A stretch of DNA of 41,748 bases from Perkinsus olseni (taxonomy: Eukaryota). The stretch spans positions 62,001 to 103,748 of the forward strand of contig JABANN010000045.1 of NCBI GenBank assembly GCA_013115125.1, read 5' to 3'. The translations under genes were made by a program, and so were the position numbers. Under the pieces are notes generated by a model. That model was given only the letters and a program-made list of their open reading frames with translations. It made no database searches and was not told the DNA's origin. Below, one piece after another: positions 2,231 through 36,808 of the stretch (position 1 is its first letter; the number at the start of each line of letters is the position of its first letter).

Positions 2231-5200
2231 TTATTTGGCAGCAATTGTTAGGTTTTGGTCGTGGTGCAGAGCGGCTCCTTTGCCGCAGCTCACTGGGAAC
2301 CGTGCCATCTTCATAATCTTCTGACCCACGGACTGACGATTGGAGGCGCCCTAAGGAGAAAATTGCAGGACAAACAGCGGAGCGGAGCTCTTCACTTTCT
2401 CGGCTGCTCGCGGAGGTTCAACACCATCACTCCAGCAGCGAACGTTAAAGATGCTATCACAAGGTCTGAGCCATGAGCAAGCTTGCATGAACAGAGGGGT
2501 CGTCGACCATCTACCTCGAACGCTGCTTCCTACTGGAATCTTCGGAGATCCCCGAAAAGTTCAAGTCCGTGCAGATCATCGGCATGGGTGATTGAGTTGA
2601 ACTCATCGATTGCATGATGGACCATTTAGCATCAATCGGGTGGGCAAACCACAGGAGGTCGGTGAGCTCAGGATCGAGTGGTGGCAAGTCGAGTTGAGCC
2701 ACGCAAGCCTGAGGATAACGTTCGCCTAGCATGCAAGGATGAGGTACTGACTTCATAGACAGCGTGATGGCACAACTGATCGGCCTTGAGAAGAGCGGCA
2801 TTCAAATCCTCATCAGGAGGGTGTTTGTAGCTGCCAATTGATGATGTACTGGAGCGACGGGAGTAGCCCACGCTGCTGCATCGCGTCGAGCAGCTCCCCA
2901 CGGCGGAGGCTACATCGAACGTCATTGAGAAGGCGGCGAGGTCCAACGCGTCCGACAAGCTCCTAAGGCAGAATCCTTCGTCAATGCCCAGTCCAGTTGA
3001 ACTCACTTGAGCCTCCGCCGATCATCACGTTTGATGTGATGCCACTCTCCTGATGCAGTCTTGAAGGTGTACGAGGGCAGAAGCTTCCAGCCATTATCGG
3101 CTATCCATAAGATAGCATCGGCAACGAAGGCTACTTCTTCCGGAGTCATCGTAAAGTGCACCCCCACACGGACAAACCCAGGCTTGAAGACCTCGGAACG
3201 GGAAGATTCTGAATGACATTGGAAGTCCAATTGCAACCACCACCGACAGGAAGGACGTACCAACAGCTTCCTCGAACCGTTCAGCGCTCCCATGAATTAG
3301 CCCGAGGATAGCCTCTGCATGAGGTCCAGCGCAAGCACATCCACCCCTCGCTTGAATGCCGAAAAGATCGTTCAGGAGGGCCGCGACGAAGTTGTAATGA
3401 AGGTACCTGGACATAGCAACAATTCCTTCGACGATGGAGACGAGCGAGACCTACAAGCCGTGCTGCGTCGGGCCGTCAGTTGTATTATACAGGATATTGA
3501 AAGAAATGATACCAGCGCAATGAGAACGTTCCTGAGAGAGTCGTCGAGTCTGATATGAGGAAGTCCACTTCACCTTCGGCCCGAGTATGTGAACTTTGGT
3601 GTGCGCTCGGAGCCTCTTGGTGAGATGTTCTGCCATCTTGAGTTCCTCAGCGGCGATTCGTTCAATTCCAATCATCGCATGGAGATGGTACACAGCACCT
3701 GTCCTGATGCAGCCAAGGATGTCCGGGGTGCCTGAGAGTATCGGGATGAGTGGTACCGAATGCGGTAAGTACTTTAACACACCAGCTTCCTCTCGCTCTT
3801 CCAAGTTGTCAAGGTATTGATGACGTCTTTGGCTTACATAGAGGACTACAACTGCCGCTGCTCTTCGGTGTCCCGCCCAAACTAAATTGCTAACGCAATT
3901 CATCCCGCCCTGGCGATCAGAGACATGCACCCTCCGAGTGTTGCATTGCCAGAAACTATCTCGGTCCCGCTTGGACCCTTGCAATCTTGTAACACTCGGT
4001 GGGACCTACTCCCCGGGTGGTAGTGGGCGGGTTAAACTCAGCTTCGTCAATGGCGCCTGGAGAGAGCAAACAACTGACGGACGATGACTATTATTACCAA
4101 CGGTAACGCAACCGTATATGCCAACTGGATTGCCGCCGCTATCCGATCGATATCTCGCTCGCCCGTACACGCTCAACTTCCATCATGCGCATTGCTGTTG
4201 TACTGCAGAACACTTCTTGTTCTTCCAAACACCGCCGCCGCAGACCGCAGGCACGGCGTTGGTCTGATGTCTCCTCTTACACAACAAAAGGCCGCTGCTA
4301 CCGGGACCACCGAGCAGCTTATGTGGCGATACGAAGGCGAAATCAATGTAGCCCTCAGGGAGGCTGGACGGATTCATGTCGACCTAAGACGACCATCATG
4401 GGAACTCGGTGTGCGGCGTTCCGACTTTATCGTGAGCGGCGATAGCTGCCAAGTCCCAGGCGGCGATACCGTTGTACTTGTGAACCAAAGCGGATACCGT
4501 TGGTATTTAAGGAGAGTATTGGCATGGGGTGAGAGTCGGTCGTAGCTTTTACATCAAGACGTGCACCAGTGACATTGCTACAGGCGGAAAGGACTGTCAC
4601 TGGCACAGCGAAGTCGTGGCGATGACGATTGATATCCGTGACCTGAAGAGACAACGACAATGTCGATGGATGCTAGCGGGAAGTCTACCTTCCTCAAGAC
4701 ATCCTCGAGGCTCTCAACGGAAGCAGTGCCCTTCACTGGATCCAGCGGCAGTGTCTGCAACGACGACGGTTGTGGTGGTGGCATGTTGTTGTGCAGGAGA
4801 GCAGCGAAGGCCTACCACCAGCTCAACTTCAAGATCCTCGGTTTTCTAACCACTGAGCCAGTTGATCAGGGGCTCCAGAACTAACAAAGATAGGCTTCGA
4901 AGCTCTGTCGTAATGCAGGCTTGGATTTTACCACTTCTCGCTAGAGTGAAGCGCCTGAGTGGATACCTCAAGGATAGCTCCCTGAAGGGAAGTAATGAAC
5001 TATGATGAGCAGCAGGATCTATAATCAGAACCTGAGGGATAACGATGAAAGCTGACGGGCTGTGAGGGCGCACCGCTCGACGGAGACCCTTCCGAGATCT
5101 CTCCGTAGCGAAGACTCGGCTACGGCACATCATTTCGACGAACTTGTTGATGGCCGCCGTAGGCTACGGCCCGTAGCACCGGCGCCACAGAAGATGACTG

Positions 5201-5665
5201 AAGGCCGGAGGGGTCGAGCGTGGACTTCCGAGAGACGAACTCACCGGAATCTTCCGAAGTACAATTGAAATACTTACGAACTTCATCTCGCGCCTCTTCT
5301 CGATAATGCATCGTCTGACGAGCAGTCGCCGAGGCCACGGAATGCGTGTTGGCGTATCTGCACGGTGCGCAGGGAATGAAGAGGCGAGGTGTTGAGGACG
5401 CACGTGGGGCAAACAGTGGAGGTTATGAAGTCCTCGATGGCATTAAGACTTCTCCCTGAGGCGGTGTAGTCGCAGTAACTGAATGGAGGGCATGTGGAGA
5501 CGGAAGAGGGTCGGGCGTACACCAGCTTCCGCGAAGAGTCGTCGAAGGGTACGGGGACTCTTTCGTGTTCTCCTATGCATTGGTCTCTGAGGGAGTTCAC
5601 GAGATCGTCATAGTCACTGCGAAGACGCACGCAGGACGGGCGACGAACTCCAGGGAAGAGAGCAT
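2231..5665 (-). pseudogene. PLP-dependent aminotransferase class V / cysteine desulfurase-like gene carrying several disabling lesions
   Basis: Spliced translation gives family motifs YCDYTASGRS, YANTHS, VIFCGAGAT-AAINK, HHSSLLPFRE, SACSNVTG, WDLAA, VSPHKLLGGPG (PLP Lys), EREEAGTP, LHYNFVAALLNDLFGIQARGGCACAGP, KPGFVRV and GEWHH. Lesions: +14 nt frameshift (5157-5170), in-frame TAG (4846-4848), AA instead of AG acceptor (4507-4508), and a 381-nt insert/intron (3852-4232). Both ends are approximate; an upstream ATG at 5802 is possible. Confidence 0.85.
5156..5177. repeat. Fold-back scar GCCGTAG-GCTACGGC-CCGTAGC (putative hAT-type excision footprint, 8-bp target GCCGTAGC)
   Basis: First 7 nt of the 8-mer, its exact reverse complement, then its last 7 nt. 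Removing 14 nt restores the conserved GAGATAAINK frame. Confidence 0.75.
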
Positions 5666-5730
5666 AGGGGTAAGGCATCAAGAAAGATCTGAAGCAGTCT
5701 TGCGGAGCTCAAGTGTACAAGATCGGAATA

Positions 5731-5752
5731 GAATGGTCACCATTCAATGGTG
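5731..5752. repeat. Fold-back scar GAATGGT-CACCATTC-AATGGTG (8-bp target GAATGGTG)
   Basis: Same 7+8+7 geometry as 5156-5177 with an unrelated 8-mer. Confidence 0.75.
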
Positions 5753-6805
5753 ATGAGAAGGGAGTCCCACTGAAGGAAGGCTTGCTGGGCTCCTATGATC
5801 ATGGTGATTGACAGCTTAATACTCCCAAAGACCTTGAGTGAGATCTTTATTGACTGGGAAACGACACTCGAGAAATGCCCCAATCGAACCAACGGGTAGC
5901 AAAATTCACCCCGTCACGGCGTCAGTTGATAATTTTTACCGACAGTCAGCCATACTCGATTTTGAAGGACTCGGTCCCTCCTTGCCGAGGAGTGATGATG
6001 CTTAGAAAACGAGTCCTCGGGTATGGCCATCCGGACCACGCAGGAATGTTTAGGTCAACATATTTCCGCTTCGGATCCTCAGGTTCATAAGTGTGACGCT
6101 ATTATGATAGCTTTGGCAGTGCACGCATGCGCAGCAGCACGCGTAGACAAACTATGTTATCAAATAACTGATACTCATTTCCGTACCACTTCGAGAGACT
6201 CAGTGGCTTAGGCCTGAGGACAACACCTCTGTGCCCTGCCCCTCATGTTCATTCGGGATAATATGCCTGATAGTCGATCGAAATCCTCAAGTTAGTGAGA
6301 TGGGCGAGCTGCCCCGGGGACAGCCTACGCCTTGCCCAATTTGGGAAGTCCAGGGAAGAGCTGATTCTCACAGCAGCGATAACTAAGCTTCGAAATATTC
6401 ACCTTTTCGATGGAGTACAGTACGGTATCACCGATACCGTGGAAACGCCCTTGACCGAAGAATCTAAGTTGCTGAGTACATCCTCGTGAGTTGGGGATGT
6501 GCGGGTATTAACGCCGACAGCGATGAAGTTGCCAAGAGGTGTATGTATTGCTACTTCAAGCAGCATGTAACCGTGTGAAGCGTATACACTCAAGCACGTG
6601 TCTTCTAAGAGGACACGGGATTCAGCATGTCTGACATGGTAGATAAGGGGACTCGCAGTCGTCATGGCTGTGTGGAGATCTGCGCAAACTACGTGAGATG
6701 CGTGCGAGGAATAATGTCGAAATCGCTGCGAGTTCGAAGAAAAAGCGCACGCCCGAGGTCCAGGATGTCGCATCGTAGACCGACATTTTCCGAATCCCCC
6801 TTTGC

Positions 6806-9631
6806 ATGATGGTGAACCGCAAGGGAGCTAGGCGGCAGCCATTGCCTGCAGAGGATGGTAGGGCCGGTTAGCATCTCACCTACCTCCGCTGTTCTCTTTT
6901 GGCTTCGAGCTGTCCTCCTTTCCCTCAGTACTCTCGGATGCAAGCAGCGATGACGGCCTTGACATGATCGGAGGCGATGGTAGGGCGGTGGGTCGCACTC
7001 TCTTCGTTGGTGGTGAGTTCCTCGAACTCAGATGAGCGTAACGACTACTCGGACCTCGAGGGCACCGAGGAAGTGGACGTGATGAGCATCGGCAGCGAGA
7101 AGGACGGACAGCAGCGAGAGGAGGATATCGAGGTGCGTCTCGAAGGCATCGGTCGGTATTAAAGGACGTGTATTCTATAGGACTTCGACGTCGAGGAAGC
7201 TCCTAAGGAAGATAAGGAAGACGATCGGCTGGCGTGGGGAAGACGCGACCGGGACTTCTACGGTATTCGGACTGTTGCGAGCTGGGGAGTCGGTGGGTGC
7301 TGACTTGGCGTTGTGGCAGGCAGTGAGTCTGAAGATGAGTCCTCTGAAGCCGAGGAGCTCCAACTAGAGGAAGCGAAGAAAGCGGCTTTGTCTCGAGCCA
7401 AGCTTTTGCCTAGGAAGACTGCTGACCTGGTAATAAGTGTTGGGGAGAGGGCGTCGATCGAAGATCCGCTGGGACGAGAGATACTAGACGATACCCCATG
7501 CTCGTGAGCGATGATTGAGGTGCCTTGCTGTAGGTTGAAGAACTGGCGGGTGGCGAAGAAGCGCGTGAAGAGGTCCCGGCTGAGGAGGTGGCTGCTGAGG
7601 GGGAGGAGTCTGAGGATGATGTGGATGAAGATTTCGACTTCGCTGCTGGTGACATCTCCTTCAAGGGCTCCACCACTGCCTCTAAGAAGCGCAAGGACGG
7701 CTTGTCCCAGACTGAGCGACGGAGACTCGCTCTGAAGGAGAGCCCGGAGCTCGAGGCACTCGTGGAACAGTACCACGAGGGCGCCTTGAAGCTGGCGGAC
7801 GAAGCCAGGGATCTGGTGGATGCTGTACGGAGGAGTCCTCCACCGGCTGGCAAGGGCGGCATGACTTTCGTAGAGACGAAACTGCAGCTGCTGCTGTCCC
7901 ATCTGAACTACTTGAGCTACTACTTCATGCTTAAGGCCAAGGGAGCCAGCGTGAGGAAGCACCCCGTTATCAGGAAGATCGCCTGGGTCAAGGGGATGCT
8001 GGACCGCCTGAAGCCGATAGAAAAGAGTGTGGCAGACCAAGCTGAGGAGCTGGTCAGTCGGTCGCAGTCGGAGGAACCCGATCCGGAGATGAGCTATCTT
8101 GATGAGGTTCTCGCTGGGCTCGGTGTTGAACTGTCGGGAGAGGAGGAAGCAGAGAGTGATGCTAGCGAGGCTGAGACGGAGGCGAGTGAAGTGGCTGAGG
8201 AGGAGACCCAGGCCGCGACGAAGATCTCCAGAGCTGACCTTGTGAAGCGTCTTAGCGCTAGACGTGCCGAGAAGCCAGTTGGTGAGCAGTCGGGAATCGA
8301 CGAAGAGAGCATCTTGGCGAAGATGGCCGCGAGGGATGATAAGGAGGATGCAGCGGAGTTGTTGAAGCCCAAGAAGGCTGGGAAGAAGTTAGGCAAGCTG
8401 CGTGCTAAGATCAAGGGCGGCAAGGGGTGACGGACGATGTCTGATTTACCGGCTTGGAGCTTGTTTTTGCAGTTACGCTGGCGCGGGCTCGGTGAGCCTG
8501 GACGAGGTTGCTGAGGTCGGGGATCTGGTCGATACTCGGACGAGTCTGGCGGATATACTGAACTCTGCTAAGCAGGTGAGAGCGAGGATGCGGGGGAGGA
8601 GTGGTATAGTGTGTCTCGCAGGTCGAAGAGGCTGCCTCTAGTCGTAAGGGTGGCGGTGATGATGATGTGGAGGTTCGAAAGGGCATGTCGATGAGGGAGA
8701 TAAGAGCTGCTATGGAGGAGGCTGATGCAGCCGAGGTAGTAGTAAGGCAGCTTACGCCTGGTGACGCTGCGCATGCAGGCACACGGTGCGGCAGTGGAAG
8801 GAGAGGACGAAGCACTGGAGCCTTCACTTATGCGTAAGGCACGCAAGGCACGGGATGCTAAGCGGGAGTCGAAGAAGTCGGCCTTGGCGACTAAGGCTCA
8901 GGCGTTCATGCCGGAGGAAGAGGTAGTAGTGAGTGGGCGGTCTGGGCAGTTCTAAGATGGTCGATGAGCTGATGGTCTGGTGATAGTGGGAGGCTTTACA
9001 CCATGGTCATTCTTTATTATGGCAATAATACTGCATAATAATGAATGCATATTGATATCATGCATACATGCATGATAAATATTGATGAATATTCATGATA
9101 CATGCATCGTATAGAGCGATACTCTATAGATTTACACTTAGTATAATGCTGAATGCTTTATAATGCTACTAGCATTTAGTATCATGCTTAGACACACTCT
9201 AACGAGTATGTCGATATAGAATGCAGGAGAGAAACTCTCTTAAAAAGGGAATTTCATTCTTTAGCCAACCTAGCGCCCTTGAGCAGCTTTCGGTAGCCAT
9301 CCTTCACTGCAAGTCGGTGTAAACGTATACTGTCATATGTTACCGGTATTCTTATATTATCGTATGACGTGTATTTGTGCTGCTCGTCGGTCAGAATGAA
9401 GTCGATCTTCGCTCCACCAACTACGCTATTAATAAGAATAAGGGCCTCACTCGGAAGCGCAAGAAGGAGGACCGCAATGCTCGTGTCAAGAATAGGAATA
9501 GATACGAGAGAGCTGTCAAACGTCGCAAGGGGGCGGTACAGGAGGTCCGGGAGGCCAGTGCGGACGGGACATACTCAGGAGAAGCCACTGGTCTGCGTAC
9601 CAACGTCAGGAAGAGTGTCAAACTTGGCTGA
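6806..9631 (+). CDS. UTP3: SAS10/UTP3 small-subunit processome component (multi-exon)
   Basis: Acidic N-terminus and AWGRRDRDFY motif. Sas10/Utp3/C1D domain FVETKLQLLLSHLNYLSYYFMLKAKGASVRKHPVIRKI. C-terminal Sas10 domain NKGLTRKRKKEDRNARVKNRNRYERAVKRRKG...YSGEATGLRTNVRKSVKL*. Canonical GT-AG introns. Confidence 0.92.
8995..9370. repeat. AT-rich array of short palindromes/hairpins in the last SAS10 intron (intron 8923-9394)
   Basis: Stems at 9008-9047, 9056-9077 (perfect 10 bp), 9085-9096, 9110-9128, 9162-9176, 9191-9212 and 9341-9348. TTTACACC (8995-9002) and GGTGTAAA (9316-9323) form an 8-bp inverted repeat. Confidence 0.7.
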
Positions 9632-9805
9632 GGTGGTTACTTGCCATTGCCCCTCATCAAGCTTGGATGCCATCAAGCTGCTGTTTATACGTCAATACTC
9701 CCTATACCAATACAACGGTAGATGCTGTTCCGTTTCTACTGCGTTGAGGAGTTGCGTTGATGACGCTGCCTCAGTAGCCTCTGTCGCAGTGTCTCCTGTT
9801 TTACT

Positions 9806-11338
9806 ATGGTCGCCGCGGAGCTTCCCGTCGGCCTACTGCTGTGTGGTGGGGTCTCGGATGATTCATCAGACCCTTCCTTAGCTGATATAGGAATCCCCAA
9901 GCCTCTCTTGACGGTGGCGAACAGGCCTTTGTACAGGTAGTGTTGTTAATCTGTACCTCTTTCGTCAACGGGATGTAAGCAGTTACGCGGTGCAAGCCTT
10001 GACGGCTGGCCCTTTGGTTAGCCGAGTAGTGCTGATAGCATGGACTGAGCAAGCCGCTGCCCTACAGGCGTCTGTTGTAGAGCACCAAGATCTCTTCAAC
10101 GGCGTTGAGGTCTCAGTAGAGGGTAGGAAGCAAGCTACAGTGAGTACAGTGACTGTGTGATCGAAGGTGTGTCGGCGGAGGCCCCTGCAGCAGAGGCCTT
10201 GATGGCCGTACTTGAGCGACGGAAGGATGTGGAGGGGAGCACCTTCCTCGTGAGTGGCTGGTACGAGGAGGTTCTATACAGCCCTGGAGTGTTGTCAGGT
10301 CGGTTATGGCGACTATATGGGTCAGTGGCCGGCCCGCACGGCTGAGTCATTGGACGGCGCTGAGTTGGAGGTCTCCATGGCTCGTAGGCCTCCCGTACGC
10401 CTTCGATTCGGCTCGGTATCTTCCTTCCAGGCGTCAAGGAGATACCTGACGATTTCGTGTACACGGCTTACGGGAGTGCGGATAAGGTAGTGTTGGTCGC
10501 TTGAAGAGGGAATGTTAGGGTTCTCTGATCAGACTATCCTTGCTTTGAAGTCCGCCGAGGATGTGGCCTTTGACGGCAGCCTGTCCTTGCGATTATCGAA
10601 GATCTTCGCAGAGGGTGATGTGACGCTAGTTCGCAACCTGATCGATACTGGTTGCTACTGGATGGGCCGTAACGTGTTGGCAAGGTTGAAGGAGTTCATG
10701 GCGGATGAGGACGAGGTGGATCGGAATCTTCGAGAGGGGTTTGTGCCATGGATGGCCGACAAGGGATATAAGGTGATACCGGGGACGTGGTGATGAGGGG
10801 GGAGTGGTCTTGGTCAGGTCCTCCTGAGAGGCCCTGAGGAGTCCCCGTTGTTGGACCCCTGCAAGAACAGGGTGAAGGGTACCGATACCCTCCTCCACTT
10901 CAACCAGCAAAGGCTAAAGCATGACCGCAGTACTGTGAAGGGAGTGCTATACGGCGCTTCCTGTGCAGTTGAAGAAGGGACTGTCGTTAAGAATACTGTA
11001 TTGGGGGATTCTGTGACGATAGCTGGTAAGTGTATTTGGGTGTCTTAGGTTGACTATGGGCTTCCACGGAATCGTCGTCTTTAGATAAGTGTCGTGTGAC
11101 CAAGTCTGTTGTTATGAAGGGCGTCACCATAGGAAGCGGATCGACAGTCCAAGAGTGTGTTCTTGCCGAGGTAGATCAACGGTCTTCAAGACAGCCCTGT
11201 GACAGCGGTGCGTGCTTCTAGGGCTGTGAAGTCGGTTCTGGCGTGAAGATGACTAAGTGTACTGTGGCGAAGGGTGTTAAGATGTTGAAGGCAGGGGAGT
11301 ATGAGGAGGAAGATTTCGATCGCAATGTGTCCAGCTGA
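9806..11338 (+). CDS. EIF2B3: Translation initiation factor eIF2B gamma subunit-like (nucleotidyltransferase-like domain plus left-handed beta-helix), multi-exon
   Basis: Starts MVAAELPVGLLLCGG...IPKPLLTVANRPLY and contains DTGCYWM...LREGFVPWM. Hexapeptide repeats KNTVLGDSVTIADKCRVTKSVVMKGVTIGSGSTVQECVL follow. It stops directly after the LbH domain with no W2 domain, which favours gamma over epsilon. Confidence 0.75.
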
Positions 11339-11495
11339 ATGCTAAGTTTCCACTTTAACGCTGATCTGTGCACTGATACCACCGGCCGTTTCGTAAGAGG
11401 GCGCAATGTAAAAAGCGCTCGCCCGAAAATAGCAGTCTTCGAGCGGTCGCCAATGGTGAACTGTTTAGTTAACACATCTTGACAAGTTAATTCTA

Positions 11496-12724
11496 ATGTC
11501 GTTTACTGGTCCGACGGAGGTGATGAGATCACCGCCTCCTGCGCCTTCGAATCTGACTAAGTCCTTCTCTATGCCGGAGACAGCGCGATCGTCGTGCTCG
11601 TCCTTGGCCTCGATGAACTTGGAGCATCATCGGAAGGGCCCGTCTCAGAGGTCCAAGGGGAGGAAGAAGAAGAAGTCCTCTGTTAGACGACATAACAGGG
11701 ATTATGAGGGGACGGCGAGGCGGACTTTTGATTGCTATAGCTGCATCAAGAGGATAAGGGCCCATCGGCCGATATACCTGCGGAATGACTTTACGTATTG
11801 TTCGAGGACATGTAGGGAGAGGGGCGTGTCTGAGCTCTTCGGGAAATTTGCCCGCCATGATGGACTCACTCCTGAGGAGCTGGATAACCTCTCCGTGCGT
11901 CAGCTTGGGATACTGCGGTCGAAGGCTGTTGATGTCTGTGCGGCTATGGCGGTGCAAGCGATAACAGTATCGGCTATGCGGAGGTATGACGGTGGTGGCG
12001 GCGATCCGGGTATTGCCGCGCGGACTTATCTCCATCCGGAAGACTACTCGACCGGAGTAGAGGGTGCTGATAGGGACGGCCAGTTCGACGATGATGAGGA
12101 AGCTGCTGCGGTAGAGGCCGAAGAGACTGCTCGAGAGAAGCTAGAGAACCAATGGCGCGATAGACCGATGACGATAATGGAGGCAGCGCAGGCACGGGCT
12201 AGGATGATGATACACAACCTGGCGCGGCGGCTGAGCAGCAACGCCTTGGTCTCGCGAGCTGTGAACACCTATTCGACTAGCAGGGAATGGGGACAGGAAT
12301 TAACGAAGAATACTAGTGTGGGTATGCTGTTTTCGTACTTACCGGAGTTACAGGGGCCGACGTTACCGCAGGACAGAACAGATGCTAGCTTAGCGGCGCG
12401 AGTGGAGCTGGAGCAGGAGGCTGCGATTGAAGCCAGCATGTACTGTCCAGTAGGCGGGTCGAGTTGCTCCAGTATGTGTATGGACAGTACGATGGAATCC
12501 AGTGGCATGTTCCGGGATCCGGAAACGTATCTTCCGTCACAGAAGCGGGCCGCAGGAGCCTCGCTTTCGGGCCGAACAGGTAGTGCAGTTGTGATTTGTG
12601 GGATTTGTGGTATGTCTCTTTTTCAGTATCCATCATACGGTTACGAGATGAAGATGATGATAGCGGCCCGGCAATTAGAGTTAAGGCTGTGGAGCCACCA
12701 CGACGAGCCCTGGGAATTTTTTGA
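11496..12724 (+). CDS. FLZ (FCS-like, DUF581-type) zinc-finger protein
   Basis: C-x2-C-x17-YCS-x2-C motif (CYSCIKRIRAHRPIYLRNDFTYCSRTCR, 11733-11813) follows a basic KGRKKKK patch. One 1084-nt exon, then a probable 47-nt intron (12580-12626) and stop at 12724. The unspliced ORF runs to 12800. Confidence 0.7.
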
Positions 12725-12799
12725 CATCATTAGAGATACCCTTAGAGTGCATAGTGGTAGTACTCGGTGCAATAAGGGTGGTGCCTGCTCTTGCTGCTG

Positions 12800-13202
12800 A
12801 TGACTAGAAAAGGCTGCGCTGCTGATGAGTCGACTAAGTCAGGCGGGGTGGCAGTTAATATTAATCGGTCGCCCTCTTCTTCTATCTTTTCTGTACGACT
12901 TTTTGAACAATCGTCTCCTACTCTATCTCTTTTGCCGTACCTGTTGTATAGAGCGCTGCTGCCATACCGGCTGAATGCCGAGCGGTGGGTGCCTGAGGAT
13001 GCTGTCACTACTACCTACTACGGTAAAATGCAATTCTGCTACTTTTGATTATCACCGTACGCTACCGTTAGAGTTTGGTCACGATGATGAGATAAGAACA
13101 TTGACGTACTGCCTGTAAGTGTCGCGTTGCACCTTCAATTCTACTGGGGGTATTGACCGTCGCAGGAGGCTTTCCGCTGTGGGCGCCGGGAATGTAATCT
13201 GA
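12800..13202 (+). CDS. Possible small spliced ORF (~60 aa) or spliced UTR
   Basis: Two canonical introns (13023-13071, 13115-13165) join ALLPYRLNAERWVPEDAVTTTYY-EFGHDDEIRTLTYC-LRLSAVGAGNVI* in frame. The 5' end is uncertain. Confidence 0.3.
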
Positions 13203-13243
13203 ATTCGACGGTTGCAGTTCTGTTTAGTCAATCTTTTTCCGTG

Positions 13244-14190
13244 ATGGTGGGAGATTCAGCGTCACCCGGGCCTGTGCTGGAGTCATCGAAGTCTGGTTTG
13301 GATGACCATGAGGGTTGTGGTCAGCAAGCTGATGACGCTCCACCAGTACTCGTGTATCACCTATTTTAGATATCTGTGGTAATGTGAATTTGGTACGAGA
13401 GGCGAATGTCCAGCGACGTGAGGAAGAGATCAAGAGGAGGCAGAGGGAGCGTCTTGAGAAGAAGCACAAGTTTTGGCAGGTAATGAGGAGTCGCTGGTGG
13501 GGGAAGGCTTCGAACGATGCTTCGATAAACTCGGGGGCGGCACTGGAGGGGCGTTAGCTTCTTAGATAGTGCAGGAGAGTGCCGCTGCTCGGAAGGATGA
13601 GTTGAGAGAATCTCGGTTCGCTAAGAGTGCAGCAAAGGCTCGGCAGACGCGGCTGCGGGAACTTGAGAATGACTACAAGGAGCGATGCCGGGAGGTGAAG
13701 ATCGTGGCTCGGCAACAGGTGCGGTCAATGGTTGAATTCCTGGGTTGACTACTGGGTCAGGATTGGTTGATACGAGCAACCGAATCGGTGATGAAGACGG
13801 TGGAGCGGCATAGGAAGGAGGACGAGGTCCAGGAGGAGGTTGTGAGGGACTACAAGCACATGAGGCGTAGCTTTCTTAATGAGCGTGCCGAGGTCAGAAA
13901 GAGACGCCAGGAGAGATTGGACACTAGGGAGAGGAGAAGGGTAGTAGTTGAGGGGATTTGTCGTTGGGCCCATTCTGGACGATGCTGTCTCCCTTTCGAA
14001 GGGGGTACCTTTCTGGGCAAGCCTTGCGTGTTAGGCCGTTAGCGTCGAAGGGAGGGATGCACTGCGGCAACGGCGAGAACTTTCAAGGGTCCGTACTTTG
14101 AGGGAATTGGTGGAGACAGAGAGAGCTCAGAGGATGGATGAGTTTGCCAATGCCATGGACAGCGGTATCATTCCCCGCTTCTTGAGGTGA
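13244..14190 (+). CDS. Hypothetical R/E/K-rich coiled-coil protein (multi-exon)
   Basis: Spliced reading NVQRREEEIKRRQRERLEKKHKFWQ / ARQTRLRELENDYKERCREVK / VERHRKEDEVQEEVVRDYKHMRRSFLNERAEVRKRRQERLD / ...DSGIIPRFLR*. It may be joined to the next gene. Confidence 0.55.
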
Positions 14191-14431
14191 TGCCTCGACA
14201 CCATCGCGGGTCTTCTGCTGATTGGTGCGTTCAGTCTGTTACCTGGCCCTGAGGACTGCCAGGAGGTGCTTTGACCTAGCATGCCATTAGACGCCATTGT
14301 TGCAGACGAAATCATCCGGTGTTCGATGTGAATGGCTGAGGGTGTTGTGCTTTGCAGTCAATTTTGAAGGGCAGTTACGCTGGCCACGGGAAGGGCCGGG
14401 GGTGGGGTCGGTGGGTGGATGGGCAGTACTG

Positions 14432-17431
14432 ATGAGTTCTGGCAGTATGAATGATTCTTCAGTGTCCCACCCTGACAACTCCAAAGTAGCATCGACTCCT
14501 CAGGGGAAGGTCTCGGTGCTCGGAGTTGAATCCAGTGCTGGGGAGCTGGAGAAGGGAGAAAGCATCTTACAGGAGGAATATGGTAATACTCTAGCGGTCG
14601 GCTTTCCCTGGAACGCCGAGATCGGTCATGGTTGATGATACCTGTTTGCGTGGGGAGGGTAGCAGGCCCAATGAGGGTGCGGTAGTAATTGTCCTGGCTG
14701 CGCGCGGTAGAGTTGTCGTTTGGCTAGCGATCTCTGGAATTATGAGCGCTGTGGCTAGGGAATGAATAGACCATTCTGTTGGGAGTGGTGCTAGACCTCT
14801 TTCCGGTGTGGTCGCTGTCTACCTCTCCTAGTACAAGAGGTTATGATTCCATATGGCCTTGTGTGTAGAGGTGACGAAGGCCTCCTCGCCGACGGTGGCA
14901 ATGGCTGTGATGAGAGAGAGGCTTGAGAGCAGTCTTAGGGACAAGGAGATGATGCGTGAGAGGATGCGCCTGCAGGAGGAGGAGCTGGCTCTGTGCAAGG
15001 TCCGCGGGTTTCATGCCTTACAGGGGGTGCCCTTGCCTCCAACGTGCGCAAGTCTCATCACTCTCCGCGAGGAAGGAGGGCAGCAATACTTTGTTTGTTG
15101 ATCTCATCACCAAGTTCCGCCTGTATTCTCGCCCTACGGCCCTGTCCACTATGGGACCTTGTGTAGGGTCTCGCTAGCCAGAATAGCGGAGAAGCGTTTT
15201 TCAGGCGAATACTGGAGAGACGGAAAAAGTTTCGTGTAAAAGTTGGCTCAGGTGAAAAAACGGTCGTATAGGGCTGATGCTCACCGGTTGAAGGAGGATG
15301 TGGAGACGCTGAGGGCCAGGGCAGCGTGCTTGGGGGAAGAGACGTCGAGTAATATGGAGGAAGTGAAGTATTGGCAGAAGACAGCAGAGGAGGCTAATAG
15401 ACATATCAATGAGTACTCGTGCATAATTTCGTGGCGCGCGGGAAAATTTTCGGTTTGTAGGATGAGCAAGAGCTTCACTCACGAGGTTAGGCTGTTGCAG
15501 CGGGCATTGGAGTGTGCTAGGGGTGGTGGAAAGCAGCAGTTCAAGCTTACTGAGAGTGCTGATCTTGTCGAGAGGCTGGGCAGGGCGGTTCTACAGAGGG
15601 ACGATGCCTACCGGGATAAAATAAGGCTCGGCGCCAAGGTGAGCGGCCTGCCACACCTGCCGAGTCCTTTTGTCTTCTACGTTCTCCGACTCCGAATCTG
15701 TTCTGCGATAGCAACAACCCTTGGAGTAGCGGCGGTTTTTTTGTCCGTCGTGAATTTTGGAAGAGTAGGTACGAGAGTTCCGTCAGCAATTGATGGCTCT
15801 GCAGAGTGAGCGCAACTCCTTGGCGTTGAAGTTGAACTCGACGACACGACAGATAGACACCCTTAAGGAGTCCAACAGGTTACTTATGAATGGTAGAGCT
15901 TGGCCGCTGATGATGAGGGAGGGGTCGCTGGTGGTCAGGTTCCATGCTACAGGAAGGCACAGTGGTAGTGGTGAAGGATGGTGACAGGATCGGCCAGAAG
16001 AAGGGTAGGCTATAGCGGGGATGGGAGTGAAGCAGAAGACTGCGTGGATCAGCATGGGGGAGGGTAGAGGACGTGGCTTTAGGGACAGCCTCCGCAGTGG
16101 AAGCTGGCACGGTCGTTCTGGATGATGATGACTTTGAAGTGGAACTGCGGGCCTTCGAGCAGCGGTACATGATGTTGGGGGAGGGGAGCGAAGGTTGGGG
16201 AAGGTGTGGTATTAGCGTGGTCTGTCCAAGCCGCGATCAGGTGCCGAACAGCTGACGACTAAGCTGCACGCAGAGTGTAAGATGCTGCGGAGGGACGTGG
16301 CACGGTGCAAGGAGGAGGCTGAATCTCTGAGGGCCGATCTCACGCAGTGGCGCGACTTGGCTGAGGACAGGCTGGCTGAGGTACTCGACTTGGAGGCGAA
16401 GGTGACGAGTCTGAACGAGACCGTCGAGGAGCAGAAGGGACAGCTGGAAGCAGCGGCTGCTGCTGCTGTTGTGGGGGAGGGTGAGAGGGGGGCTGAGCAG
16501 AAGGAGTTGGCTGAGGGAGGGTTGAGGAAGAGAGATAGTGTGGAGGTAAGGGAGACGCGGGAGCTGGCCAAGTCCTTGACGAGGTCTGTGACGGATAAGT
16601 GGCTACGGCAAGGCGAGGAGGAGGAGGAGTGCACGTCGCTGTACAGAGGGGTTCAGGAGATCAACACGGGAGAGACCGTGGAGGTGCCCGACGGTCTTCC
16701 ATCTGCTGCCGCCGCCTAGTCCTGAAGCAGGTATCGGTAGTGGAGCGTCGGGTCGAAGGCGGCGAGGGGTCCTCCTCCTATGAGGTCATGGCTACCGTTG
16801 ATGGCAGCAGGACTTACACCATCACTGTGGACCCTCAGTACTGGTCCTGGGCATGGCCAGTCTGCTCATGCTTGGCGCTTGCTAGATACTACCAGGATTG
16901 CCCTCCTGAGGATAAGTCATGGATCTCAGAGGTCGTCACGCTCCTCGGCCTCATTGATGATGGAGAAGGGGGTTCGAAGCGTCTGGTCGTGCCGGAGCCT
17001 GCAGGTCCAGGCTGGGGGGGTGTTGCTCGCTGGCTGAGTCCTTCCACGTTAGGTTCGGCCGAGCTGGAGGGTGGTGTGAGTGTGACGGTGTACCAGTACA
17101 CGCCTACTGTGTTTTACGTGACAGCGTACGATGGTGATTCGGGAGCTGTGGGGGCCACCACCTTGGACGTGGCTGCGGAGGCTACAGGTAACGCCTACAC
17201 TGGCCGTTTCAATGGGCGGGCGAGATCTAAAAAAGATATCTTGGGAATCTTCGCGGTGCGCACTCCCTTGTAGATACCTCCTCCTTGTCGAGTTGTGATG
17301 CAGCACAGTGGGTATTAAGTCACCTGGAATTGTCCCGCGAGGCCGATCAGAATACCATCCACTTGGCTTTGTCCCATGCCCCTCCTGTTGTTGGTGAACC
17401 GACCCCTCCTGCCGCTGCTGCTGTTGATTGA
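14432..17431 (+). CDS. Hypothetical long coiled-coil protein with a beta-rich C-terminal region (multi-exon)
   Basis: Exons encode MRERLESSLRDKEMMRERMRLQEEEL, EVRLLQRALE...ADLVERLGRAVLQRDDAYRDK, FEVELRAFEQRY, AESLRADLTQWRDLAEDRLAEVLDLEAKV and VTVYQYTPTVFYVTAYD. The last exon 17274-17431 ends PPAAAAVD*. Start is uncertain. Confidence 0.6.
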
Positions 17432-17490
17432 CCTGGACGGGGGTTGTGTTGAAGTTGTCAATATGCAAATGCCTGGTTACAGTAGAGGGA

Positions 17491-20400
17491 ATGACTATCG
17501 GCAGCGGCAGTGCCGGAGTGCTAGACGTAGCCTCCTGTTCGGCGTGGTTCCAAGCCAGGCTGCAGCTCCCAGGTCCTGGCCAGCAGTAGACGAGTCCGTG
17601 TGGGTAATGAGATCATCAGGTTTTACCCCCGATAACTGGAGTGACCGAGTGGCGAAGAAGTGCTTCGACTGGGCTATCAATCCTGATGCTGTGAGCCTGT
17701 GTCTGTGGCAGAGGGAGGACGGCACTCTGAAGGCCTTCAAGCATACTCGTAGGGCGCTGATTTGGTGGATTTACTCTACTGTCGGGTAGGGGAATCCGAG
17801 ATGAAGGCTACAGTGGCTGAGCGGCTCCCTAAGGCGATACACTCTGGGCGAGTGAAGGAATTCGCTGCCTTCTACAAGCGGACTCCCACCGCTTGCACTA
17901 AGGAGAATATCTCTGTCAGAAGGAGGATGGTTTGCCGATGGAACTTGGTCGTGTTTGTAGGACGTTGTGATGTTCACCGTGGTGAGGGGGGACATCCTTC
18001 GTGATGGGCCGATGCTCATGCTCAACTCCATCTATGCTCCGATGACTACCCATGACCGTGGCTGGCCGGATAACGTCAGGAAGGAGTTTACGGAAGAGGT
18101 GGTATGAGCGATTACTGTCCTTTTTGGACGGCTGACCTGTGCTTCTGTCCATCCTGTTTATCAAAGCACTTCGCTTTGTCTAGGAAGGGGTTCGGGAAGG
18201 GCACTTCAAACTTCCCCTATGCGGTCCCTCTCAGTTCCAACGGTTCATATCCGCCAGCGTGGAGGCGGCCAACCTCGCCAAGGGGACGACTGTCCTCTAC
18301 ATACCGGTTGACGATCTGAGTGATGTTGATGCAGCTAGCAGGGACAAGGACCTGGTCCAGCGTCTGGAGAGCTGCCTTATACATTGGGTAGCCCGGTGAC
18401 TGCCTTTGCCATTCTATGGTCGTCATCCTGTTGCAGACCCGGCAGATCAAGGACGTGACGAGTTCCCAGGGCGTATCATCGGGGACCTTCGCCAGTGACT
18501 CTGACGATCCTGCCAAACAGGGTGAGCGCTGGGATGAGCCTCAAGTCCGCTTGGGATGTTTCTTTCTCGACGATGCGTCGTATCCTGACTGATAGGTCCC
18601 CTTAGCGAGATCGAACTGTGGAGTATGAGGGATGTGGATCTGTCGAGGCTGAATGATCAACTGCAGTCACCTGAGCTGCAGCAAGTGTTGAAGGTCCTAG
18701 AGGCCGCCAAGAGCCCCTACCTCAAGCAGTTCAAGTCCTTGGAGGACAGCATCCATGCTGGCAGCCTCGAGGCTCGGGACAACCTAAAATTCCTCTCTGT
18801 GAGTTCTGCGACGAGTGGTATCAGCTGTCGGTGTTGTCAAGATTATCAGGAAACCGTTACAGCATTATTCAGGTTTTGAGGGAGCCTTGCGTAGAGCTGG
18901 CCGAGGCTGGCCCAGCGGAGCTCCCTGCCCTGCTGCCGAAGATACTCAACTGCGTCCGTCTCGTGTGGTCCATGAGTACTCATTACAACACTGCTGATCG
19001 GATCATTGGCCTCTTGAGGAGGCTCAGTAATGAGATTATATACCGCTGTCAGGAGAGGATATCGGTCGAGAATATCTTCCAAGGTAATGAGGATCAGGGG
19101 CTACGCACTGGGAAGAATTGGAGTTCTTGGTAGGCCCCAAGGTTGACGATGCAAAGAAGGTCTTGTCGGACTGCATACAATGTGGCAAGGCGTTTCGAGA
19201 GGCCTACCAGCGTGTTGTGAGGCTGATCGCTGCAGACAAGGCGGCCAAGCCTTGGGACTTTCCGGAAGGTTCCATCTTTGCACAGGTACTCCCGGCTGGG
19301 GGGGCTTTATCTGCTACAGTCTGGTTCTTGCCAGATCGATGCATTTGTCCAGCGTTGTGCTGATCTGATTGACGTATGCGTAGGAAGGGAACAGTTCGCC
19401 ATTATGAGCCTCGGCCGAGACCCTCCCGTTTTCACAGGTAGCATTTAACAGCCCTGTTGGTGTTCGATGGTGTTGCTGCTGCTTGGTAGGCACTAAAGCC
19501 GATGAAATAAGCAAGAGCTTGAGCGAGATAGAATTCACGTTCTTGCGGAGCGCCGATCGATTGTGGATCGCAGATTATGATATATTGGACGTTAAGGCGG
19601 GGAAGTGGCATGAGGACTACGGCGTGCTGAAGCATCAGATGAAGGATCTTGAGGTCCGTAAATGGGTCGGTAAATCTCCATGGATTCACTTCGATCAGAT
19701 TATGTACACAAACGCCATCAACTCCGCTTTCGAGAATGTGTCGACAGTGCAGGCAGCGTGCGACCTCATCTTCAACTTCTATGGGCTAGCCAAGCGGGAG
19801 CGAGTCGTGGCGTTTGTCCAGAAGAAGTCCGTCAACGTGTGAGTGACATCGAATGGCCCGATTGGTGAGGACCGCCTGGGCTCGCAGGTTTGGCATTTTT
19901 CTGGGGGAATTGGCGAGTGTGAAGAGGGAGCTGGAGCAGTTCCGGAAGAATCCCCAGTTGCCGATTGCGGCGGAGCATCCACAATTCGCCGGCCAGGCCA
20001 TGTGGGCTAAGGGAGTCGCACTGCGGATTCAGAGACAGTGGGAGGTAGATGTTAGTAGCTTCGCTCTGCTGTGAATGCATGTGAATTTTTCATCAGATCA
20101 TGGAGGAGCTGATTGAAGCGGGGGTCCTTCATGCGTCTAGAGAACAGGCTTTGGCGCGTGACGGCTATCAGAATCTATGCGTCTTGCTGGAAGCCTTGAC
20201 AGCGCAGGTTAGTCGGGCCCGACTGTTGAGGTTGGTCGAGCCTGGCTATCTTACAGACCTTCGGGGAGTGGCAGAACGATTTGAAGTCTCTAGGAGAGGA
20301 TAAGCTGCCTAAGAGGTTGGCGCAGCATCTCTTATGCCGGTGAGAGGGATTGCTGGCGGATGGCAGCATCAACGGGCTAATTACTGCTCCTGCAGGCCGG

Positions 20401-32400: not shown

Positions 32401-35400
32401 TTAGGCGGAAGACTTGAAGACGAAACTAGAGAGAGCTGAGAAGCTAGTGTCTGGGTTGGCTGGAGAGAAGGATCGATGGGAGCTCAGCCTTGAAGATTAT
32501 GATGAACAAATAGGACATCTAGTTGGGGACTGCTTGGTAGGCTGTGGCCATGCACACGTGCCAGCGCATCAGACGAGGTCGGCTCAGGTCGCCGCTGCCT
32601 TCCAGAGCTATGCTGGCCCCTTTGGGTCGGCCATGAGAGACGCTTTGGTTCAAGATAAGTGGATGCCCCTGGTCCAGGACCTAGAGATACCCTTCTCGGA
32701 CGGCTTCGACTTCCAAGACTTCATGGCCGATCCAGCAGAGGTCAGAATATGGAACCTGCAGGTAAGGGCCGTGATCGATCTCAGAGCGTTGGAGCCTGCG
32801 CTGCGCGCAGGGATTACCGACCGATCGATTTTCCACCGAGAACGGCGTACTGGTGACGAAGTCCCGGCGATGGCCGTTGATGGTGGACCCGCAAAACCAA
32901 GCTAACCGGTGGATCCGGGACATGGAGAGCAAGAATGACCTACGAATATTCGACCCGAATACAGCCAACTTCATGAGGACCATCGAGCGGGCGATCGAGT
33001 ATGGCAAGCCTTGCCTGATGGAAAATGTTGGTGAAGAGCTGGACCCGTCGCTGGAGCCGGTTCTGGCGAAGAACATCATCAACACAGGAGGCAGCCTCAG
33101 CATACAGATCGGCGAGTCGACACTCTTTTACAACCCCGATTTCAAATTCTACCTGACGACGAAGTTGGGGAATCCCCATTACACCCCAGAAGTGTCGACT
33201 AAAACTACTATCGTCAATTTCGTCGTTGTCGAGGAAGGGTTGTCGAGCCAGTTGCTAGGCGTCGTGGTGAAGAAGGAAGAGCCGCAGCTGGAGCAGCAGA
33301 AGAGCGATTTGGTCGTGCAGGTGACGAGGAGCTGGCGGGCCAGGAAGCTGCCACAGAGACCTCTTCGTGCAGGTGTCGAAGGGAAAGAACCGTCTGGCGG
33401 AGTTGGAGAATGAAATCCTCCGCCTGCTGTCGGAGAGCAAGGGGTCGTTACTGGATGATCTCAACTTGGTGAACACTCTCAACGAGTCCAAGACCATCAG
33501 TGAGGCGGTTACAGAGCAGGCAAGCCGCCGCTGTGCATATCCAAGAGAATATCGGGGGATTCATCCGTAGGTTGAAGATGCGGAAAAGACTATGGTCCAA
33601 ATCGACGCTGCTCGAGAGAACTACAAGTCCTGCGGAGACCGGGCAGCTACTCTATTCTTCGTTCTCAATGACTTGGTAACGGTGGACCCTATGTACCAGG
33701 TAAGCTAGGCCACTGCAGGACGATGGCAAGCTTCGCCGTGTGACGTAGTTCGCCTTGGAACCGTACATCAAGCTCTTCCAGTCGAGCATCGATAAGTCAT
33801 CGGAACAGAACCCCATGACATGCGGTGTTGACGAACGTGTCGAGGTACTGATCGTCGTACGTGGATGGCAGGCGAGGCTCTGCTTGTCTTAGGTCCTCAA
33901 CGACTTCCATACCTTGGCAGTCTACCGGTTCGCGTCGCGAGCGCTGTTTGAGAGGCACAAGCTCCTCCTGTCGTTGCACATAACGACTCGGATTCTGGCC
34001 AGCAAAAGCGCCCTGTCGCCCAATGAGTTCGCTTTCTTCCTCCGTGGCGGGCAAACGCTCGATAAGTCAACTCAGGTGGGAAGAGCATGAGGTTCTCTCG
34101 AGTGCCCTTGCAGCAAAGTCGTTGTTAGGCCGTGAACCCCTCGCCCGATTGGATCACCCCAGTTTGTTGGGATAACATCACGTCGCTGGCTGTGGCATCT
34201 CCGGACGCGTTCAAAGGTTTCCAGTCCGCGGTCGAGCAGGGGCTCCGAGAGTGGAAGCGCTGGTGAGCCGCTTGATGGTCCTTGGTTGTTACGTCCCTGC
34301 AGGTATATGGCTTCCGAGCCGGAGAGCGAGCCTTTGCCGGGCGAGTGGGAGTCTAGGCTGGATCCCCTTCAGAAGCTCCTGTTGGTTCGCGCGTTGCGAG
34401 GCGACAGGATCCTCCCTGCCGTGGGAAGGTTTGTGACGGCTAAGATGGGTCCGAGGTTCGTGGAGCCGCCCAACTTTGACCTCGAGGCCATATACGATGA
34501 GAGCGATGCCAGGATTCCCCTTGTCTTTGTGCTGAGCCCTGGGATGGACCCCACGCCCCTCCTTCGAGGTTTGGCCGTCAGTAGAGGGACTGAGTGGAAG
34601 ACCATATCCCTCGGTCAAGGGCAGGCACCGAAGGCCGAGGCCATGCTGAGGCACGGTGTTGAAGCGGGCTTCTGGGTGTTCTTGGCCAACTGCCACTTGT
34701 CGGTCTCGTGGCTCCCGGCTCTGGAGAAGTTGGTGGTACATGAGCTCGAGGAGAAGACCCCGCACGCGACGTTCCGGCTTTGGTTGTCATCCGACCCGAC
34801 GCCCAAGTTCCCCATCGCTCTGTTGCAGAAGTGCATGAAGATGACGACGGAGCCTCCGAGAGGATTGAAGGCCAATATGGCCAGGCTTCTGATCAACCTC
34901 TCCGAGGACCAATTCACGCGGTGTACGCAGGCGAACGAGTATCGCAAATTACTGTTCTCGCTGGTGTGGTTCCACGCGATCCTACTGGAGCGTAAAAAGT
35001 TCAAGAATTTGGGCTGGAATGTCGCCTATGATTTTAACGATTCTGACTTTGATATCTGTGAGAATATATTGGCCATGTATCTGGACGAGTACCCGAACGA
35101 GATTCCGTGGGAGGCGATACGCTACCTCATCGCTGACGCTAACTACGGTGGCCGCGTGACGGAGTATCCGGACAACAAACTACTACGGGCGTATGTGGAT
35201 GAGTTCTTCTGCCCTGACGCCGTAAACACTTCGAGCTTCCCTCTGTCGCCGCTGCCGACCTATTACATCCCGGAGGAGACCACTCTTGACGGGTAGGACA
35301 GCCTCCACGGCTCGGGTATTGAGGACCTTCTGTAGGTATCGTATGTACGTGAGGGAGCTCCCGCTCAACGAGCCGCCGGAAGCATTCGGACAGCATGTAA

Positions 35401-36634
35401 ATGCTGAGATCAGCTCAGCTCTTGCGGATGCAGAAGCGGTAGTCGAAGAGTAGATTAGCAGTCATTCGTAGAACCTTCTCCGGTTGTTGCAGTTGCTGAG
35501 TACCGTTATTTCTATTCAGCCAGCTGGCGAAGCGTCTCAGGCAAATAAGGGTAGTGCCGCACACGTGTACTTGGCTGGCTAGATGCTCCATCAGGCGACG
35601 CTGGGGGTGGTGGCAGCGGCTCGAAAGACGATACGGTCATGAAGGTGTGCGACAATCTACTTGAGAAGCTCCCTGAGGATATTGACTTCGCGGACATCGC
35701 AAGTCGCAACGAAGGGGACACCAGTCCTCTCAAGATCGTTCTCCTTCAAGAGATCGAGAGGTCAAAAAATTTTCACAATTTTCCTCAAATTTTATTTTTT
35801 CTGTTTACGACACCTTCCGTGGCTTCAGATACAACTTGCTATTGCGGAAAGTCCGCGTGTCCATTCATGAGCTGAAGAAGGGTATCGCTGGGTTTGTTGT
35901 GATATCAGAGGACCAGGAAGCGGTTATGCAATCGCTCTCTGAAGGGAAGGCAAGTTCCCCAGTGCAGGCTGGACTAATGAGGCTGTAGAGGCCCCTGCCA
36001 GGTCCCGGGTGCGTGGCATAGCGCATATCCATCACTGAAGCCCCTCAATGCTTGGATCGTCGACCTCATCTCTCGCATAGATCAGCTATCCCAGTGGGGC
36101 CTCTATGAGACGCCCAAGGTCTTCTGGCTGGGAGGACTCACTTACCCCACGGGCTTCTTAACAGCTGTACTGCAGCTTTCCGCTAGGAAGAATATGGTCA
36201 GCGTGGATACGCTCTCGTTCGACTTTGTCGTACTGCAGGTAAGCTCCAAGGTCCGGCCTGTACTGGTCTGTGTAACTAGTTGTCAGATTCACGATGAAAC
36301 CTCCGTCACAGCAGCTCCTAAGGAGGGCGCTTACGTGTCGAAGATGATCCTTGAAGGCGCGTCGTGGGATGTCCAACATAGTCACCTGGCAGAGCCAGAA
36401 CCGATGGAACTGTTTTCACCGATCCCTATCGTCCATTTCAAGCCGGTAGCGAAGAAGAAGACCACCGAACAAGTCGTGTCCAACATATACCCCTGCCCGC
36501 TGTATCTCTATCCTATCAGAACAGGAACCAGAGAAAGGCCTAGTTTTATGATTTGGGTTGACCTGGAAGCGGGCGAGCGTAATGCCTCGTTCTGGACCAA
36601 GAGAGGCACAGCGCTCCTTCTGTCAATTGCCTGA
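17491..36634 (+). CDS. DNAH2: Axonemal dynein heavy chain, inner-arm I1/f beta type (DNAH2 / Chlamydomonas DHC10-like), dozens of short introns
   Basis: Tail motifs [29 protein letters not shown] and GPLSEIELW. Linker [20 protein letters not shown]1 GPAGTGKT (26112-26135) and [11 protein letters not shown]2 [11 protein letters not shown]3 [11 protein letters not shown]4 GVGGSGRH. Stalk [24 protein letters not shown]5 [14 protein letters not shown]6 SLGQGQAP. C-terminus [13 protein letters not shown]...[13 protein letters not shown]. Junctions I checked splice in frame. Confidence 0.95.
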
Positions 36635-36786
36635 TGAACTCACATGCGATTGTGATTGCCCCCTTTAAGATCGTGTTGAGTTACGTACTGTGAAAAAAAC
36701 TGATCGAAGTCTTCTGTTCGAAAGAAGCTCCGCTACGCACCATATTACCGTAGCACCTGCCGCCTCCTCGCGAATAATAAACTCGA

Positions 36787-36808
36787 GGAGAAAATTTCTC
36801 CGAGAAAT
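36787..36808. repeat. Fold-back scar GGAGAAA-ATTTCTCC-GAGAAAT (8-bp target GGAGAAAT)
   Basis: Third exact 7+8+7 instance, about 150 nt downstream of the dynein stop. An adjacent CTCCTCG/CGAGGAG inverted repeat spans 36764-36790. Confidence 0.7.

Follow-up and report, generated by a model that had tools for sequence, protein, structure and literature searches.

Three 22-nucleotide double palindromes in Perkinsus olseni as probable repair scars of an excised DNA transposon with 8-bp target duplications

Footprints left by excision of Ac/Ds, a hAT transposon, in Saccharomyces, Arabidopsis, Candida, and maize carry palindromic P-nucleotides centered on the complement of the element-adjacent base, and they arise on an 8-bp target duplication by microhomology joining after hairpin opening, as set out in the footprint descriptions of PMC5873905 and PMC1978519. 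Yeast footprints are described with palindrome arms of up to 20 nucleotides (nt) and with microhomology in 88 to 89% of cases. Here, we describe three 22-nt sequences of likewise palindromic construction in a stretch of Perkinsus olseni DNA (contig JABANN010000045.1, positions 62,001 to 103,748 of the forward strand), the whole of which, 41,748 nt in length, is called the window below. We consider it likely, with a probability of roughly 0.7, that each of these 22-mers is the repair scar of an inserted and later excised cut-and-paste DNA transposon with target duplications of 8 bp, the most likely candidate being a hAT-like element. The enzymatic steps and the identity of the element we infer by analogy with the described systems. 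Perkinsus differs from Ac/Ds in having one dominant product, with the full 8-mer inverted, whereas footprints obtained experimentally are numerous and for the most part short. It also differs in that its scars are known without a tied element or transposase, and in that their targets lack the preference seen with Hermes.

Hairpins on the flanking DNA that are opened by host enzymes to yield P-nucleotides are a feature shared with Hermes and with V(D)J coding ends. The nick made by Hermes is offset by one base. The hairpins of RAG and Transib, by comparison, have no one-base offset and go with 5-bp duplications, whereas Perkinsus has odd palindromes and an 8-bp target. Hermes targets, like those implied here, are 8 bp (PMC10368747). 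Muta1, a Mutator-like element, resembles the Perkinsus case in its flank hairpins and 8- to 9-bp duplications (PMC5499845); it differs in that its excision is mainly precise, and the available portion of PMC5499845 describes no comparable class of footprint. For mPing, the duplicated target provides the homology that sets the register of repair, according to the account in PMC4561436, and here the likeness to Perkinsus is in the principle and the difference in the outcome: direct repeats lead to precise restoration with mPing, whereas inverted copies made by hairpins would lead to a +14 scar in Perkinsus.

Scars were sought in the window as aX + revcomp(aXb) + Xb, that is, as the first 7 bases of an 8-mer, followed by the reverse complement of the full 8-mer and then by its last 7 bases. 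Three 22-nt strings of this form, built on unrelated 8-mers, had been claimed by a first-pass annotation of the sequence, and all three were confirmed in the window sequence. Scar 1 (5156-5177) reads GCCGTAG GCTACGGC CCGTAGC on target GCCGTAGC, scar 2 (5731-5752) reads GAATGGT CACCATTC AATGGTG on target GAATGGTG, and scar 3 (36787-36808) reads GGAGAAA ATTTCTCC GAGAAAT on target GGAGAAAT; each has the 7+8+7 layout, and no strand is assigned to them. The three target 8-mers are mutually unrelated. Once an 8-mer is chosen, the remaining 14 nt of the scar are fixed, and at uniform composition 1.6e-4 exact sites are expected in 41,748 bases; both statements, made in the first-pass annotation, hold. 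None of 300 dinucleotide-preserving shuffles contained an exact site, against three in the real window. The scar geometry occurs non-randomly, and the 14 added nt are wholly templated by the 8-mer of the flank, with no untemplated, foreign, or element-derived base. No similar window turned up when other genomes were searched for look-alikes.

To see how narrowly this geometry is defined, we scanned 64 geometries, with target lengths of 7 to 10 and offsets of 0 to 3 at each end. Exact matches were found for a target length of 8 with an offset of 1 at both ends (8/1/1; n = 3) and for target length 9 with offsets 3 and 1 (n = 2), and all other geometries gave 0. The two 9/3/1 matches are scars 2 and 3 redescribed, one adjacent base pairing by chance. 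Exact forms with a target length of 7 or of 10 to 12 are absent from the window, and, apart from the redescribed pair, 8 is the sole length from 5 to 12 that gives exact matches. A sharp peak at an 8-bp target and a 1-nt offset, as the first-pass annotation had anticipated, is thus present in these 64 geometries and this one 41.7-kb window, and the implied target-site duplication is 8 bp, as in hAT footprints. Each of the six palindromes in the three scars has a single central base, complementary to t8 or t1, the outermost target base; this is the feature by which PMC5873905 characterizes such footprints. Two palindromes per scar, each centered on the complement of the element-adjacent base, are what flank hairpins following an 8-bp duplication predict.

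Our model for the origin of the scars is based on the published Ac/Ds and Hermes excision scheme. Insertion would duplicate the 8-mer t1..t8 on either side of the element. At excision, a nick would be placed in each flank, one base into the duplication, and its 3'-OH would attack the opposite strand, turning the left flank into the hairpin t1..t7-t8'-t7'..t1' and the right flank into its mirror image. Hairpin opening by host enzymes, at a point other than the tip, would then leave unfolded tails with inverted copies of the 8-mer, one on each strand; these complementary copies would pair in register before flap trimming, gap filling, and ligation. The product would always be t1..t7 + revcomp(t1..t8) + t2..t8, 14 nt more than the original target, irrespective of the points at which the hairpins were opened. 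When the middle 8 nt are divided between left and right P-nucleotides, nine of nine possible splits yield the identical string. Since all splits, joined by in-register pairing, lead to one product, precisely placed cuts are not needed, and the invariance would come from microhomology. The unusual precise repair route that had been invoked for these sites is therefore superfluous: in-register pairing alone accounts for the invariance of the scars, and this point is new.

Forward-reverse-forward micro-duplications can also come from template switching. The scars could then have arisen without any transposon, as insertions templated when synthesis folds back or switches template in the course of break repair or replication (snap-back, polymerase-theta type), and the lack of an element in the window (no transposase domain in 140 open reading frames [ORFs], no terminal inverted repeats at 5,728 repeat pairs, as detailed below) is in keeping with such an origin. 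Template switching would be expected to give variable arm lengths and spacings, whereas the scars are fixed at 8/1/1 alone of the 64 classes. It would also be expected to leave microhomology at the switch points, whereas direct reading of the sequence finds zero microhomology at the forward-to-reverse junctions; this absence fits a covalent hairpin better than it fits polymerase template switching. Nor is there a background of one-sided fold-backs, as odd palindromes with arms of at least 7 outside the scars number four against about three expected, which is no excess. Finally, template switching would need the whole 8-mer on both flanks and hence an earlier duplication. We regard this explanation as improbable.

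Some library or long-read artifacts make small inverted duplications, which is the one point that could be raised in favor of the scars being products of assembly or sequencing. Independent reads contradict this for scars 1 and 2. All sampled words (100%) from 4800-6600 are present in runs from two studies, and a 36,371-nt contig derived from the short reads of DNA run X1 spans 4204-7200, both scars included, with 0 differences. Contig alignment shows that runs X7 and X8, from two other studies, represent spliced RNA; scar 1 is unaltered in both, and scar 2 is present in X7, with 0 differences. Because scars 1 and 2 are identical in DNA and RNA contigs of independent studies, they are no assembly artifact, and we give an artifactual origin next to no weight. 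The first-pass annotation had made its case dependent on read support, which these two scars now have in the X1 DNA and the X7 and X8 RNA.

Scar 1 interrupts a coding exon of a class-V aminotransferase paralog (2285-5690, minus strand), which is recognized by Aminotran_5 matches, by Perkinsus homologs, by a tblastn alignment from 5618 to 2285, and by spliced RNA contigs. The added 14 nt cause a frameshift there. In the Perkinsus homologs P0001 to P0003, a conserved motif is unbroken at the scar 1 position (P0002 has VIFCGAGATAAITKF), whereas in the window tblastn finds it split, with VIFCGAGATG in one frame to 5169 and TAAINKFVEMM in another from 5172. As one frame ends at 5169 and the other begins at 5172, the change of frame falls inside 5156-5177. 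Scar 1 remains in the transcripts, as seen in the X7 and X8 contigs.

An unscarred form of site 1 was found in X9, a divergent isolate with the same organism label. Its contig over 4952-5226 has 10 substitutions and three indels, and exactly 14 nt are absent from it at 5157, at a depth of 60.4 of 60.4. We take this contig to be the same locus and not a paralog, because it reads through intron sequence at 96% identity. Paralogs and other species share the unscarred form, so the single 8-mer is ancestral and the 14 bases were gained. Scar 1 is thus a derived, recent insertion into an ancestral single 8-mer. A comparison of isolates had been proposed as a way to find both empty and filled alleles; the empty one exists at site 1, in X9, and no filled one was seen.

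It might also be asked whether selection maintains the double palindromes as functional signals, for example as cruciforms or RNA hairpins serving regulation or 3'-end formation. Scars 2 and 3 are indeed located in gene-flanking DNA that is transcribed or nearly so. The three scar sequences are unrelated, though, and scar 1 frameshifts a coding exon and is missing from isolate X9. The positions relative to genes also differ: scar 1 is in an exon, scar 2 is upstream of a spliced-leader site, and scar 3 is past a stop codon, 153 nt downstream of that of the dynein heavy chain gene. A selected function is very improbable on these grounds.

The aminotransferase paralog is transcribed, spliced, and apparently capped by a spliced leader. 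Its RNA (X7 and X8) shows eight short CT..AC joints, which correspond to GT..AG introns of 42 to 61 nt on the minus strand. The X8 contig terminates at 5690 with 9 loose letters, the reverse complement of which agrees with the 3' portion of the spliced leader given for Perkinsus in PMC3101222, and the mature mRNA therefore begins near 5690. Scar 2, situated 41 to 62 nt upstream of this spliced-leader acceptor, consequently sits in the part removed by trans-splicing. The gene carries two further lesions. There is an in-frame stop near 4850, where the homologs carry Asp, and a 46-nt intron (4507-4552) starts with GT and has AA in place of the AG acceptor; this intron is retained in both RNA runs, and in isolate X9 two substitutions (4507 and 4509) make its acceptor CAG. 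The frameshift, the stop, and the dead acceptor thus identify the paralog as a transcribed pseudogene. The scars are located in DNA under little constraint, and none is evident. At 4000-4233 in the same gene, contigs from each of the four runs are interrupted and continue in several different ways, and word depth is 2 to 4 times higher; this is probably the PLP-site exon common to aminotransferase paralogs. Copies of CCGTAGC and of its complement occur near scar 1 (5103-5126), and ACCGTAGC, identical to bases 1 to 8 of the spliced leader as published, occurs at 36747-36754, 40 nt before scar 3. CCGTAGC, near scar 1 and at 36748, is similar to the spliced-leader start; it was dismissed as chance, with 4 occurrences against 2.6 expected.

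Several results weigh against the proposal of an excised hAT-like transposon. The window contains no transposase, as the first-pass annotation had stated: none of its 140 ORFs of at least 90 amino acids has a transposase domain. We searched for 8-bp direct repeats 30 to 6,000 bp apart, with ends required to be complementary at 11 or more of 14 positions, and none of the 5,728 pairs in the window flanks terminal inverted repeats. No filled allele, with the element in place, was seen in a search confined to the window. Across isolates, an empty allele is known for site 1 only of the three sites, and at the scar 2 site X9 has 9 gap letters, not 14, in a contig that is 14% different. A literature search gave no report of hAT elements or of such scars in Perkinsus; it also gave nothing on Ku70/end-joining or nonhomologous end-joining repair genes in this genus. 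The target rule nnnTAnnn fits none of the three targets, a weak test at n = 3. The Hermes preference, nTnnnnAn (PMC10368747), fits one of six target half-sites, an equally weak test with three targets. Experimental hAT footprints are diverse, with 28 types among 128 Candida revertants in the data given in PMC5873905, and this heterogeneous spectrum is not matched by the three of three clear scars that are identical in form (three of four if the candidate at 6342-6359, described below, is counted). Of the hAT excision originally proposed, then, the geometry stands, since it fits an 8-bp duplication and flank hairpins with a 1-nt offset; the hAT identity of the element does not draw on any hAT, terminal repeats, or filled site in the window.

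Alternatively, the same mechanism may have been driven by a non-hAT element, either a Mutator-like element (MULE), for which flank hairpins also form, or an element such as Merlin, from a different superfamily that makes 8-bp duplications. Muta1 forms its hairpins on the flanking DNA (PMC5499845), Merlin-related ORFs, of a superfamily with 8- to 9-bp duplications, are recorded from Perkinsus marinus (PMC8101967), and the scar targets lack the Hermes-type preference (one of six half-sites). MULE duplications are 8 to 10 bp, commonly 9, and the scar target length of 8 is inside this range; target lengths of 9 and 10 with symmetric offsets, however, gave 0 exact matches. Muta1 excision is precise in more than 90% of cases according to PMC5499845. 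PMC5873905 and PMC1978519 document a hairpin offset by one base for footprints of the Ac/Ds type, and no such documentation was found for MULEs or Merlin. The P. marinus Merlin copies, as reported in PMC8101967, are without recognizable ends. We consider a non-hAT element unlikely. Dada elements, whose duplications are 6 to 7 bp, are also reported from Perkinsus (PMC3706591).

All scars in the window are perfect. When decayed scars were sought at 8/1/1, no window site had 1 or 2 mismatches, and 7 sites had 3 mismatches against 1.5 expected, with six of the seven inside the dynein gene region; these seven were rejected as worn scars, as none resembles a decayed scar. The occurrence of perfect scars only points either to recent activity of the element or to loss of scars. 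Recent activity is considered because scar 1 post-dates a split of ~4% divergence. With regard to loss, a scar consists of 6- to 7-nt direct repeats around a palindrome, and removal of exactly 14 nt by slippage could recreate the original site; if this happens, precise reversion may explain why only perfect scars are seen.

A wider interpretation is tentative and, in our judgment, rather doubtful: a hairpin-forming element would now be active in Perkinsus, entering and leaving often, its scars would make up a major class of small insertions and a real source of gene-killing frameshifts, and hairpin-capped breaks would be mended almost only by pairing between inverted copies of the 8-nt target, with the short-P end joining of plants and yeasts being rare. 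Were this true, pairing-dominated mending would indicate a microhomology-driven repair regime. Our main proposal, that the scars mark an excised transposon, has a consequence of its own: if it is right, visits by transposons and the repair of hairpin-capped breaks have left a natural record in Perkinsus DNA that can be counted, and this in an alveolate with little-studied repair pathways. As mutations the scars do damage, one of them frameshifting a gene in the window, and they are polymorphic among isolates and could be used as strain markers. New in the present case are a scar inside a conserved coding exon with its polarity set by outgroups, an isolate with an empty site, and the retention of a scar in RNA.

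A possible short footprint of 18 nt, again without strand, lies in intergenic DNA at 6342-6359 (TGGGAAG TCCA GGGAAGA; +10). The target logic of the scars with only 4 P-nucleotides would fit it, and 0.04 sites per class are expected; this candidate is unproven. The sole other match of its class, at 32575-32592 inside the open dynein stalk ORF, is attributed to chance, as is a shorter candidate footprint at 38800-38816 within the CAF1 ORF.

Other genes in the window are a Sas10/Utp3 gene (7.5-8.4 kb, plus strand), the dynein heavy chain gene (recognizable domains from 18.6 kb to the stop at 36634, with Dynein_C matched to the last profile position), and a CAF1-like gene (38.7-39.9 kb, minus strand). 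Upstream of the first recognizable dynein domain, at 9300-17800 on the plus strand, there are long open frames without a Pfam match (e.g., 11469-12797, 443 amino acids), which may represent the tail of the dynein or belong to a gene of their own. The AT-rich segment 9046-9110, in the intergenic DNA that separates Sas10/Utp3 from the plus-strand gene that follows, has repeated ATGCAT and TGATA words and a perfect 10+2+10 palindrome (9056-9077), whose geometry differs from that of the scars. Across 5773-6051, the X9 contig has ~435 nt compared with ~277 nt in the window, an intergenic length difference that could hide an insertion. GC skew on the plus strand is positive throughout 6000-34000 (0.1 to 0.25), spanning the whole run of plus-strand genes.

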